DNA of 64,000 nt from Octopus vulgaris (lineage: Eukaryota): positions 80,290,001-80,354,000 of the forward strand of contig OX597816.1 in assembly GCA_951406725.2 (NCBI GenBank), written 5' to 3'. The notes beneath the pieces were generated by a model, which saw only the letters and a list, made by a program, of their open reading frames with translations, was not told where the DNA came from and made no database searches. The position numbers and the translations under genes are program-made. Below, one piece after another: positions 4,516 through 64,000 of the stretch (its first letter is position 1; every line of letters starts with the position of its first letter).

Positions 4516-4702
4516 AAAGAAGGAAAATGTACACAGTTTACACAGTTTAAATGTATTTTAAGTGAAAGGGCATTGTGGTTGTCGCCCGGTTTCGTTTTCG
4601 CCAGTCATGACATTTAAATTATTGTAATTTCGTATTTTCTTAAGATTTTAGCCCATGTTCTTGCATGAAAGTTATATATATATATATATATATACATACA
4701 TA

Positions 4703-4914
4703 CACAAGTGCAAACAAGGGAGTCAGAGAAAGGCAGAATGCTACTTATATCTGAACACTACTACAGAAATATTCTTTTAAAAAAAACCTTTCTTCTAATT
4801 TTTCTAAATTTAATTATTTAATCGTTACAGTTGAAAAGGTCTCAAAACGACCGAAACCGGTACTGAAAGATTCACTATAAAATCATCTTAGCATTTTCTA
4901 TTTTTGACTTGTTT

Positions 4915-4920
<6 letters not shown>
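4703..4920 (+). mobile_element. ~220-bp hammerhead-bearing element, copy 1 (PLE terminal-repeat-like or non-autonomous), inside (TA)n
   Basis: Near-identical to 62808-63025; flanked by TA-rich repeats on both sides. Confidence 0.8.
4825..4868 (+). ncRNA. Minimal hammerhead ribozyme with U3-A8 variant core
   Basis: cag-TTGAAAA-ggtc(tcaaaac)gacc-GAAA-ccgg-TA-ctg; palindromic stem III ACCGGT; GUA triplet. Confidence 0.78.
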
Positions 4921-4979
<59 letters not shown>

Positions 4980-6249
4980 TGTATACATACATACATGTAC
5001 GCACACACACACACACACACACGCACATATATATGGAAACTCCATCCATCCATTCATTTATACATACATATGTACGTACATGCATGAGAGACACTCAACA
5101 TTAAGCCTCATACATATGGCATGAAACACGAATCGTTGAATGTGTCATGAATACTATCTCCAACATTAATACAACTTCTATCAGCCTTGTTAAATATGCA
5201 GTTATATATCTGACGGCATGCTGTGAAGTAGACATTTGTTCAAAATCCTAGAGATATCCATCTCAAACTTGGATACACAATGTAGCGATTTGCTATAAAT
5301 AACATGGTTGAACATCTCGCTGACACTAGCTTGAACAACTGAAGAGAAATAACATCACGAAAGGTGAATTAAATGTTTTTAGTTACTGTTATAGAAATAA
5401 CCGTAACGATAAAGCACATTTTTCATGGAATTATGAACTCAATAATTATTTTATTAATTGTTTTATAATGGCAAAAATATTCCCTTGTTGGCTATACCTC
5501 TGTATTGGAACTACAGTAGGATGAACTTTACCCAGTATGAAATTATTTTGTGACGAAACAATTACCCAACAACTAAATTTGTTGTACGCAAGAGGAAGGC
5601 TGATAATTACTTTATAATTGATAAGCGTAATTTTATTGCCAGAAGTGTGAACATATTTTACAAATAACACTACGCTTTTACAAATAAGAGTACGCCTAGG
5701 ACAACATGCCTATAGCAACGATGACATCAAATGTCACAACAGATTGCCATGCTGTCAATGCCTGTGGCAGTAATGATGTTAATTAGTGTACTACAAACTA
5801 AAACAGCGCGGACTATTTAAAAATTAGTTGTATCGTTAGTGAAATATTTCAAGACGAGAATAATTTCATATTTAAGATTCTTGTTACAAACTCATATTGG
5901 ACTAGCTTTAGTGAAACCAACTGATTGTTGACTGTTAAAGCTGTTTAACGAAATAGAAGTAATGTCTTATATTTAAGGCAGATTTACACTAGCATGCATG
6001 CCTTCCCAAAAACTGCAAAGCCGCGTCTTAGAAATACTAAAGAAGTAAAATAAAAAGCAAGAAAAAGTGCTACTACTGATTTGATAAGTATAAATAAAAA
6101 ATAGTTCATCGACCGAAGACTATCAGTATGTGGTGTTTATCCTATTCAAGTAAATAATTACACTCTTCTGCAGATCAACACAAACATGTCCAGTGTCTTC
6201 AGAGTTACATCCAGAGTGTTTGGGTGTCAATCTGAGGATATGTACCAGC

Positions 6250-6852
6250 CTCATGGTGTTTGAAGTGAACACTAGTGATGGCGATGTTATGCCTCCATTC
6301 ATCTTCCACACGGCCTCAGACTCAAAACGGAGGACTACATCAAGTACCCGGAGGAAGTAGTGCTACCCTGGGTCAAGAGGGTGGCTGCTGAATGACTCTG
6401 TCTGGCAACAAGACTCTGCACCGTGCCGCACAAGCAGAAGAACCCATTCATGGCTGTTAGCCAATTTCTGTGACCATATCAACTCTAACATCTGGCCACC
6501 TAACTCCAAGACTGCAAACCCTTTAATTATTATGTGTGGGGCGCAGTTGAGCGATAGACCGACAAAACTCTAACACCAAAGATGAACTGAAGGCAAGGAT
6601 TATGGTAGCATATTAAACAAGGAGACCGTTCTTGTGGAATTTGTGGAAATTTTTCCCTTGTGGAGTTGCAAGAAATTCCGAAGTCGTCTTGAAGCTGTGG
6701 TTGAAGCCAATGGTGATTTTATTGAATAAATTTACTCTTTAGTATTTCAAGATATTTATATGTAATTTTGGTAAATATATCTGTTAAAATGAGATGTCAG
6801 TGTTATTTTCATTTTTGCATAACTTAGACGACAGTTTATTCACCCCACCCTG
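6250..6852 (+). mobile_element. maT/DD37D-type Tc1-mariner transposon, decayed 3' half
   Basis: Frameshifted MVF.V..SDGDVMPPFIF...VWQQDSAPC...IWPPNS...YYVWGAVE; ends caccccaccctg followed by TA. Confidence 0.85.
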
Positions 6853-7023
6853 TATATATGTATATACGTAGTAGTTATTTAAATTTTGGGTATACACCTG
6901 GTAGTATTCCGATTAAAGCACTTTCACTGTCTATGGCTACCTGATGTCACCCACAATACTTGTATAAATGCCACTAGATCAACCACAGGAATTCTTCAGA
7001 TTTTTCCTCAATTCATTGAAAAC

Positions 7024-7127
7024 TCACCTGATGAGACACAGCTGCACCGAAGAATGCACAATAACCAGTTGCATAGTATCTCACCCGTGAGGGATCGCTG
7101 CAAGATGAGTCGAAATGATCATTGCGA
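7024..7127 (+). ncRNA. Type I hammerhead with long stem II insertion
   Basis: tcac-CTGATGA(7028-7034)-gac...gtc-GAAA(7112-7115)-tgatca-TT-gcga; palindrome ATGATCAT; AATAAA at 7130. Confidence 0.65.
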
Positions 7128-7232
7128 TTAATAAAGAATCACGTGAATTCCATTTTCCGTTCCTCTCGTGTTGTATATAATTTGTGTATGTGTGTATATG
7201 TGTGTATCATTATTGATGATAATTACTATTAA

Positions 7233-7771
7233 CCCTTCGTTCGTTACATGAGGTGTGTTGTCACCCCAAAGTATTCTAAATGCTCGTAATTTCTAATTCG
7301 CGACGTTTCTCCCACTTCCTCTACTTTCTGATCCAGTGAGTGTTGCGGGTGGTGTGACGCAGTCGCGGCTCAGTTGTCGTGGGAGGTAGGCGTCGGTTTT
7401 GTTTAGTCACCCCATGTGTTCAAGTTTTGATTTAATGGATATTGTAACGGAGATTGCCTGTTATGCTATTTTTTAATATTAATATTCATCATTGATATTA
7501 AACAATTCCACAAAATAAATGTGATCTAAATCTAAGATTTTTTTTGTTTTTCCTTAATTTAATGATTTATTTTATTGTGTTGTTCTCTATTAATATCACT
7601 CAACTGCAAGGGCTTCAAATTTCTCAACAGTGATTGCAAATATATCCTGAACCAGCAAAATTAGTATATTTTACATAAATAATACTGAAACTATAAACAT
7701 TTTTGTATTTAGGTGTGCAAACACGCCAAGTAACTAACCATGTTCAGAAAGGTTAGGTGATTAACGAAGGG
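7233..7771. mobile_element. piggyBac-like non-autonomous element
   Basis: TTAA|cccttcgtt ... aacgaaggg|TTAA; no ORF. Confidence 0.75.
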
Positions 7772-42046: not shown

Positions 42047-42371
42047 TGTGGCTGTGTGGTAAGTAGTTTGTTTACCCAACCACATGGCACAGGGTTCAGT
42101 CCCACTGCGTGGCACCTTGGGCAAGTGTCTTCTACTATAGCTTCGGGCCGACCAAAACCTTGTGAGTGGATTTGGTAGACGGAAACTGAAGGAAGCCCGT
42201 CGTATATATGTATATATATATATATATATATCGAGCAACTCGACCCTGGGACTTATTCTTTTGTAAGCCCAGTACTGGGCTTACAAAAGAATAAGTCCCA
42301 GGGTCGAGTTGCTCGATTAAAAAGGCGGTGCTCCAGCATGGCCGCAGTCAAATAACTGAAACAAGTAAAAG

Positions 42372-62309: not shown

Positions 62310-62419
62310 GTATATATAAGAAATATATATACACACACAAATATTACACTCCATAGAATCCATTACTAATCAGCCCCATCAAAGCTATACTTACACCCAT
62401 TCATATTCTCCCTTCTCTG

Positions 62420-62600
62420 TTTTTTTCTTCTTCTTCTTCTTCCACTTCTTCTTTCATCATCATCATTATCATCATCATCGTCGTCATCATCATCACCACC
62501 ATCATCACCACCATCTTCTCCTTCTTCTTCTTCATCATCATCATCATCATCATCAACATCGTCATCTTCTTCTTCTTCTACTTCTCCACCTTCCACCCCT
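62420..62600. repeat. (CTT)n/(CAT)n trinucleotide repeats
   Basis: Read directly. Confidence 0.93.
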
Positions 62601-62807
62601 TAACCTTGTCACTAATCTCTTTCAGTATAACGCCTACGCAAATTCCATAAACAATTCCTGAATTGAACTGCGACTACTGTCAGCCACTGTCAGCCACTGA
62701 CCATTCAAAATACGACCATTAAGGCATTCCCAGATTTCCCCACCCCTCTCCACATCAGCCTCATTATTCTTCACCTATCCCACCAAGAACTCAAAACGAC
62801 CTCGAAC

Positions 62808-63025
62808 ACACAAGTGCAAACAAGGGAGTCAGAGAAAGGCAGAATGCTACTTATATCTGAACACTACTACAGAAATATTCTTTTAAACAAACTTTTCTTC
62901 TAATTTTTCTAAATTTAATTATTTAATCGTTACAGTTGAAAAGGTCTCAAAATGACCGAAACCGGTACTGAAAGATTCACTATAAAATCATCTTAGCATT
63001 TTCTATTTTTGACTTGTTTTTTCAT
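62808..63025 (+). mobile_element. ~220-bp hammerhead-bearing element, copy 2 (may extend 5' to ~62640)
   Basis: Near-identical to 4703-4920; same 3' junction ttcat|(AT)n. Confidence 0.8.
62930..62973 (+). ncRNA. Minimal hammerhead ribozyme with U3-A8 variant core
   Basis: cag-TTGAAAA(62936-62942)-ggtc(tcaaaat)gacc-GAAA-ccgg-TA-ctg. Confidence 0.78.
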
Positions 63026-63169
63026 ATATATGTATGTATATATATATGTATGTATGTATATATATATGTATGTATGTATATATATATGTATGTATATATA
63101 TATGTATGTATGTATATATATATGTATGTATGTATATATATGTATGTATGTATATATATGTATGTATGT

Positions 63170-63210
<41 letters not shown>

Positions 63211-63487
63211 TGTATGTATATATATATGTATGTATATATATATATATATGTATGTATATATATATATATATATATGTATGTATATATATATGTATGTATA
63301 TATATATGTATGTATGTATATATATATGTATGTATGTATATATATATGTATGTATGTATATATATATGTATGTATGTATATATATATATATGTATGTATA
63401 TATATATATATGTATGTATATATATATATATGTATGTATATATATATGTATGTATGTATATATATATACATGTATGTATATATATAT
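63025..63487. repeat. (TA)n/(TATG)n array
   Basis: Read directly. Confidence 0.97.
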
Positions 63488-64000
63488 GCCCAAGGCATCA
63501 GCCCTTCCACCAATACACAAAAATGGAAGATAAGATTCCTGGAGGACTGGGTCGAGGCCCATCCAAACCACATCCCTTTCTTCGTCCTCACTGAAACCCA
63601 TCTTAGTGACCTCCACTTGGAAGCCGAGGTGAAAGTTAAAAATTTCAAAACCATTCGTGCTGATCGTGCTGGCAGAAGAAAGGGTGGGACTGCCATTTAT
63701 GTCCATGATTCATTCTCAACAGAAGCCATGAACATATTTTCGAATGGATACTGCGAAGCAGTCGCTGTATTCAGTCAAACCAACAACTTAACAGTAGTTG
63801 GGCTCTACAGACCACCCCAAACGCCCCTACCATGCTTCAAGGAATGCCTCAACAGCATAAAGTGTTTCATTCAGCAGTGTCAACCTGACAACATTTTAAT
63901 GATGGGAGACTTCAACCTTCCCGGGGTTGACTGGTCTACAAACAGTCTGCCGCCAGGTTCTTCTCTCTCAACCCCTGACAGGGAGGCAGTGGAATCGCTT
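63488..64000 (+). mobile_element. Third CR1/L2-group LINE (sister of subfamily B), APE domain, runs off the window
   Basis: Open frame [15 protein letters not shown]...TETHL...GLYRPP...GDFNLP, not in the ORF track. Confidence 0.93.

Follow-up and report, generated by a model that had tools for sequence, protein, structure and literature searches.

A young Penelope-like retrotransposon with a U3-A8 hammerhead motif and a probable −1 frameshift is the likely source of two repeat copies in an octopus genome

The stretch of octopus DNA analysed here, called the window throughout, is 64 kb long and holds two related repeat copies, all features of which lie on the forward strand. Copy 1 (4702..4919) matches the 3′-terminal 225 nt of the full-length element at locus L045 with 98.7% identity and reads as a 5′-truncated 3′ end (pLTR) of a Penelope-like element (PLE), and copy 2 (62314..63024) is a longer 5′-truncated 3′ end that takes in nearly the whole 3′ UTR and aligns to the same element with 93.5% identity over 752 alignment columns. 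The copies are 98.2% identical to each other over 221 nt and both terminate at TTTTTCA followed by (TA)n, i.e., at the shared end base that the first-pass annotation had reported. Beyond its main 3′ terminus, copy 1 is followed by the (TA)n target tract (4920 to 4993), whose first 7 bases are the element's own TATATAT, and a (TA)n/(TACA) tract (4674..4701) abuts the truncated 5′ junction; copy 2 is followed by a (TA)/(TATG)n tract (63025..63488). Whole-window Rfam and repeat searches returned nothing but microsatellite noise among the matches listed. The TCT/TCA trinucleotide tracts in the 3′ UTR (62426-62579) vary between copies of the element, which thereby spreads microsatellites. Elsewhere in the window, a perfect head-to-head inverted repeat of ~44 bp per arm (42229-42316) lies beside a (TA)n tract and resembles a different interspersed repeat copied in fold-back form, which a PLE-type inversion may have produced.

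Each copy contains a type I hammerhead motif. That of copy 1 (4820..4872), recognized from sequence, motif scan, folds and a weak match to Rfam HH9 (22.5 bits, E 0.0015, under the gathering score of 52), is built from helix I strands at 4820-4830 and 4863-4872, the core U3-U4-G5-A6-A7-A8-A9 (4831..4837, with U3 at 4831 and A8 at 4836; sequence, scan and family state), a helix II of GGUC/GACC closed by a 7-nt loop (4838..4852; scan and fold), and a segment comprising G12-A13-A14-A15.1, the palindromic helix III ACCGGU (4856-4861) and A17 (4853..4862; sequence and two-copy fold). The position of the hammerhead cut is set by an established consensus, which places the predicted cut site between 4862 and 4863 in copy 1 and between 62967 and 62968 in copy 2, where the motif spans 62925..62977 and was found by sequence, scan and fold. 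Both cores read TTGAAAA (4831-4837 and 62936-62942), and both copies have helix I (cag/ctg, extendable to AATC/GATT), helix II (GGTC/GACC), GAAA, the palindrome ACCGGT and the triplet GTA, so that all the defining parts of a type I hammerhead can be read off: U3-A8, G5, A6, A9, G12-A14, A15.1-U16.1, GUA and three helices. The earlier claims that a UUGAAAA core stands between intact stems in both copies, and that the motifs differ only in loop II, thus hold; the sole difference lies at 4848/62953, and the C4848 of copy 1 occurs in one of the haplotypes tallied. Scanning both strands of the window for type I hammerheads with any paired 3-8 state found these two sites only.

Taken as monomers, the hammerhead copies fold no better than shuffled sequences (z −0.17 and −0.38), and the significance of the motif therefore rests on its core pattern, its copy number and covariation across families. 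Helix III is stable only between two copies, according to folding, and the two-copy fold pairs the ACCGGU palindromes at −23.7 kcal/mol, compared with −8.4 kcal/mol per monomer. This agrees with the dimer model, which predicts palindrome pairing between two copies (PMC4209133; PMC6765202).

A search of the whole genome (2.8 Gb) yielded 1,077 candidate copies, of which 40 were scored, with 93-100% identity among those listed. The flanks of genomic copies encode reverse transcriptase (RT) and GIY-YIG ORFs, which answers the question of whether such coding capacity is linked to the repeat. Pfam recognizes the RT (RVT_1, E 3e-8, above the cut-off) and comes just short of its cut-off for GIY-YIG (E 3e-4 to 7e-4), and the endonuclease part of ORF2 has a YIGQT motif with two cysteines ahead of it. 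Between RT and endonuclease (EN) lies the linker CGRPNCGIC, a CX4CxxC that fits the CX2-5CxxC of the Neptune/Nematis type; it also occurs in close relatives and is absent from a distant group. The Cys-linker is defined in a set of papers that also mention esterase-bearing Neptune-like elements (PMC6431247, PMC3846280, PMC5408684, PMC9004415). ORF1 (411 aa) and ORF2 (776 codons) were both intact in 10 of 17 units picked by similarity to one copy, a fraction that does not apply genome-wide, and several intact units stand in tandems of ~4.4 kb. On this map copy 1 is the last 218 nt of the element and copy 2 approximately the last 710 nt, reaching back to just after the ORF2 stop.

We therefore place at roughly 85% the probability that the window repeats are 5′-truncated 3′ ends of a young endonuclease-bearing PLE of the Cys-linker (Neptune/Nematis) type, in which U3-A8 is the family consensus and the hammerhead is likely to cut weakly and only when two copies pair. 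Like the Neptune and Nematis EN+ PLEs (Craig et al. 2021, PMC8557442), the element has an RT followed by a CX2-5CxxC linker and GIY-YIG, partial tandems, inverted 5′ copies, a one-sided 30-40 nt tail and a bias for (TA)n. It has pLTRs in partial tandem or inverted arrangement with the optional 30-40 nt tail, and a hammerhead within the pLTR, as expected of EN+ PLEs; canonical EN+ PLEs, however, are described as single-ORF elements (PMC8557442), whereas the clade found here has a separate ORF1 of 350-470 aa joined to ORF2 in the −1 frame. At locus L045 a second, unrelated GIY-YIG-like ORF (6479-7666, reverse strand) adjoins the element, which suggests nested Penelope-like families.

The first-pass annotation had instead taken the repeat for a stand-alone element of ~220 bp, which is the length of the shorter copy. 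That the family might be a non-autonomous SINE or a retrozyme-like element moving as circular monomers has some appeal, as animal retrozymes derive from PLE pLTRs (bioRxiv 10.64898/2026.07.22.740005) and 15 of 30 copies in an unbiased sample are stubs of ~300 nt or less. The 3′ pieces, however, range from ~110 to >1,600 nt without a fixed 5′ end (30 position-ordered copies on one contig, with lengths taken from BLAST boundaries, which may break at indels). Nor did the loci examined contain the short non-coding tandem units, each with a hammerhead, that mark non-LTR retrozymes: the tandem units are ~4.4 kb long and coding, no short head-to-tail array was seen and the window copies are single. 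As the main reading, a 220-bp SINE or retrozyme is refuted by the length of copy 2, the coding tandems and the variable 5′ ends, and we consider it very improbable.

Across the whole genome, the exact 20-mer context of the core was matched 2,356 times, and 2,344 of these matches are U3-A8; the others are four C3-A8, one G3-A8, one C3-G8, three U3-G8, one U3-U8 and two U3-C8. U3-A8 was likewise present in all 26 hammerheads found beside ORF1 with a query that excluded the motif. The double change was proposed to be the family consensus rather than decay, and these counts bear this out. The 13 changes in 2 × 2,356 sites (0.28%, or about 0.3% per site at positions 3 and 8) imply a young family and, with the 10 of 17 units intact, agree with the recent mobility that had been claimed. 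Because the family is young, fixation of U3-A8 alone says little about selection, and near-fixation also follows from descent from one master. By the 3′ strand of helix I, copies at loci L093-L122 fall into two subfamilies (AAAGATT and AAATGTT), both of which, judged by eye, still pair with the 5′ strand.

Better evidence on selection comes from the paired 3-8 states of relatives. Eight loci of sister families have C3-G8 (L142, L144, L145, L146, L147, L154, L222 and L223, the last read by eye) and one (L226) has U3-A8, while L152 is ambiguous, and across these sister families helix III takes the form of six palindromes (ACCGGT, ACGCGT, ACATGT, ACTAGT, ATATAT and AACGTT). The scan found no hammerhead in the remaining close loci, e.g., L143, L148, L153 and L224 (21 loci, many of them short). 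More distant PLE loci (L157, L212, L215, L187 and L197) contain motifs resembling hammerheads, three with U3-A8 and the others with G3-C8 and A3-U8, so that all four paired 3-8 states occur in the sample of PLE loci. One copy of the family itself (L085, G000:C13:524796) has a canonical C3-G8 core. Compared over 233 sites with the closest haplotype (in L246), this copy shows 3 differences, and positions 3 and 8 account for two of them. Independent mutation predicts ~0.008 such copies, a figure that concerns one case only, noticed post hoc. The haplotypes nearest to this copy included no intermediate (C3-A8 or U3-G8) lineage, and a search of the same genome for a canonical-core sister family with one tight pattern, which leaves room for other architectures, gave 3 matches against 2 for the control, this copy being the sole family member among them.

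The U3-A8 hammerhead described here is a fresh example of a published variant, and the repeat that bears it is the tail of a known retroelement class. U3-A8 covariation in natural hammerheads is on record (PMC3088659), and U3-A8 hammerheads were reported in the pLTRs of Cercyon PLEs from Schistosoma mansoni, with ~1,300 hits (Cervera and De la Peña 2014, PMC4209133). Common to Cercyon and the present family are the type I motif in the pLTR, the U3-A8 covariation, a dimer-type helix III, and over a thousand mostly single copies with inverted pairs (PMC4209133). Unlike in Cercyon, helix II here has 4 bp and position 9 is not followed by an additional base, a palindrome of 6 nt persists in helix III, the copies are nearly identical where those of Cercyon are heterogeneous, and a U3-A17 pair is possible with the triplet GUA.

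The predicted fold indeed pairs U3 with A17, the counterpart of the inhibitory C3-G17 pair that has been linked to 8- to 100-fold slower cleavage (PMC3884650), and on this model the pair may dampen cutting. As modelled, the hammerhead likely cuts weakly and only when two copies pair; for this it would rely on the ACCGGU palindrome of another copy, and protein may assist. An alternative that we regard as unlikely is that the motif is a catalytically dead or near-dead relic carried by a successful master element whose transposition does not need it. The U3-A17 trap is consistent with such a relic, as is the lack of any 5′ end at the cut site among 30 ORF1-bearing copies. Published work can be read in the same direction, in that hammerhead mutants of an anole PLE had no effect on in vitro insertion and reads ending at the cut site were absent (PMC11167929), and Naiads thrive without hammerheads (PMC8557442). 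Against a relic stand the change of both positions in such a way that the pair is kept, the intactness of all other core positions, the retention in sister families of 3-8 pairing and of a palindrome in helix III, and the reported in vitro activity of U3-A8 covariants (PMC3088659). Weak, pairing-dependent cutting remains our preferred reading. Being young, with intact tandem units, a natural C3-G8 copy and sisters in both core states, the family is a rare test bed for asking what PLE hammerheads do.

How copies insert can be read in part from their 3′ ends. Among ~123 near-unique copies (de-duplication was imperfect), 62 end at the main terminus, TTTTTCA + (TA)n, 34 have a tail of ~32 nt, 25 run into ORF1 and 2 are of other kinds, so that there are two 3′ termini ~32 nt apart. 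In all eight inverted pairs the tail is at one end only, a published PLE signature (PMC8557442, PMC11167929). On one contig, 29 of 30 copies are followed by at least five TA units and the remaining one runs into ORF1, which substantiates the suggestion of TA targeting. Since both termini fall at TA-like stretches of the element's own sequence, pairing with the nicked (TA)n target may help priming. Insertions begin downstream of the hammerhead cut site and read through it, and the templates were therefore uncut or re-ligated.

In the mechanism that we propose, tandem copies would be transcribed, the GIY-YIG domain would nick (TA)n, and RT would start internally on uncut RNA at either of a pair of UA-rich sites that lie downstream of the cut site by 57 and ~90 nt. 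RT would usually stop early, leaving stubs such as both window copies, which on their own are probably inert. The PAc Poseidon element of Anolis (Frangieh et al. 2024, PMC11167929) resembles this scheme in that two adjacent internal RT starts define its tail, its hammerhead has a 3-8 pair and uncut RNA is the template. PAc, however, starts at RNA lacking homology to the target, whereas the termini here lie at UA-rich stretches matching (TA)n, and it has one ORF and a C3-G8 core instead of two ORFs and U3-A8 (PMC11167929). The two ORFs set the present clade apart and raise the matter of how the second is expressed.

In retroviral-type frameshifting, a −1 slip at U_UUU_UUA joins a structural ORF to a polymerase ORF, and Athena PLEs have a frameshift between ORF1 and RT. 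In the present family, ORF1 overlaps ORF2 in the −1 frame at U_UUU_UUA, and ORF2 has no AUG ahead of its conserved N-terminal motif IINL..KGLKFTPTP, the first AUG coming after it. The heptamer T_TTT_TTA is present in all 36 rows listed (~33 places), where the search anchor included two of its Ts. All eight relatives with the junction covered (33-45% identity) have U_UUU_UU(A/G) in a −1-compatible frame, 38-86 codons before the KGLKF motif, and upstream of the slip site the frame is open for 110-467 codons in seven of them and for only 38 in L154. The junction thus carries a conserved, in-frame X_XXY_YYZ heptamer. The ORF2 homologues are 612-803 aa long and none is fused to ORF1 (120 listed of 534, with lengths to 1,372 searched); looking for ORF2 relatives of greater length (1,373-3,920 aa) turned up none, which adds little weight. 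ORF1 is homologous across the −1-joined elements and has 951 relatives at 50% clustering, which measure at most 536 aa among the 150 listed. In a FastTree RT tree of 39 rows, which contains no named reference element and leaves out L149 and L154, whose RT match was too short, a branch with SH-like support of 99 separates seven −1-joined elements from 14 single-ORF elements. ORF1 itself had no Pfam family in more than one of seven members, no Atlas match and, at E 0.001, no similar fold. In its structure model the chain consists of helices as far as residue 243, after which confidence is low (mean pLDDT 61).

From these patterns it is likely that ORF1-RT-EN would be made by a −1 ribosomal slip. 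As in retroviral-type and Athena frameshifts, a slippery heptamer would join a structural to a polymerase ORF, whereas folding finds no conserved 3′ hairpin and there is instead a conserved spacing to the ORF1 stop. No stimulatory structure 3′ of the slip site was conserved (z +1.4 to −2.4, with pseudoknots outside the folding method); z fell below −2 at one of nine slip sites, and the family's own site folds at −0.2 kcal/mol. This lack of a structure could also be taken to mean that ORF2 is expressed by splicing to an acceptor-like TTTTTTAG, or by reinitiation, an explanation that we judge improbable. Introns can persist in PLEs (PMC4209133, PMC8557442), and the junction is TTTTTTAG in the family and five relatives; in three of the eight (L144, L153 and L222), however, it is TTTTTTGT, and splicing is disfavoured because these lack the AG. 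The −1-compatible frame of the run in all eight relatives, and the position of the family's first ORF2 AUG beyond the conserved IINL..KGLKFTPTP motif, also speak for slippage rather than splicing or reinitiation. In the literature searched for Penelope and frameshift, we found no paper on programmed frameshifting in endonuclease-bearing PLEs; the legend to Fig. 1 of PMC8557442 states that a frameshift with a pseudoknot can set ORF1 apart, and the passages searched in the supplement of that paper hold nothing further on it. Frameshifting would alter the annotation of this PLE clade, in which RT ORFs are now called as separate, N-terminally clipped proteins. Some PLE contigs and proteins (L222-L239; P0029, P0068, P0075, P0076, P0080 and P0096) are filed under bacterial genome records and are most likely host DNA binned with symbionts.

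The spacing between slip site and stop was examined in 152 ORF1 homologues (P0121-P0272), 78 of them with at least 340 aa. Phe-Leu occurs within the last 35 residues in 63 of these 78, compared with 6, 5 and 2 in upstream control windows, and the distance from its start to the end is exactly 12 residues in 22 of the 63 and never less. Over all 152 homologues, 83 have Phe-Leu, 27 of them at 12 and one at 8. At the DNA level, the stop is at codon 12 in five of nine junctions and earlier in none, whereas the expectation from off-frame stops of these ORFs is 57% below 12 and 4% at 12. The rows are related, so that formal P values overstate the case, and the spacing is longer in about two thirds of the homologues. 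The sequence between slip site and stop is not conserved.

The 12-codon spacing matches that of collided ribosomes, whose disome footprints are offset by 30 and 33 nt and accumulate at stop codons (PMC7784341). With a stop at codon 12 and a 33-nt offset, UUU and UUA would occupy the P and A sites of the trailing ribosome, whose next step would close the gap to 30 nt, and queueing at termination may then stimulate the slip in place of RNA structure. Tentatively, and as a possibility that we hold to be less likely than not, a widespread EN+ PLE clade would use a −1 frameshift stimulated by queueing rather than by RNA structure, in which termination at the ORF1 stop, 12 codons past the slip site, would keep the following ribosome exactly on U_UUU_UU(A/G) and so tie RT output to the ribosome load of ORF1. 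A rival reading is that a length requirement of the ORF1 tail explains the stop spacing. If the 12-codon spacing does reflect stimulation by a terminating ribosome, it would represent a structure-free way to programme −1 frameshifting. The Phe-Leu-to-end distances also have minor bumps, at low counts, around 22-25 and 32-33 residues, which might be the product of longer queues of ribosomes.
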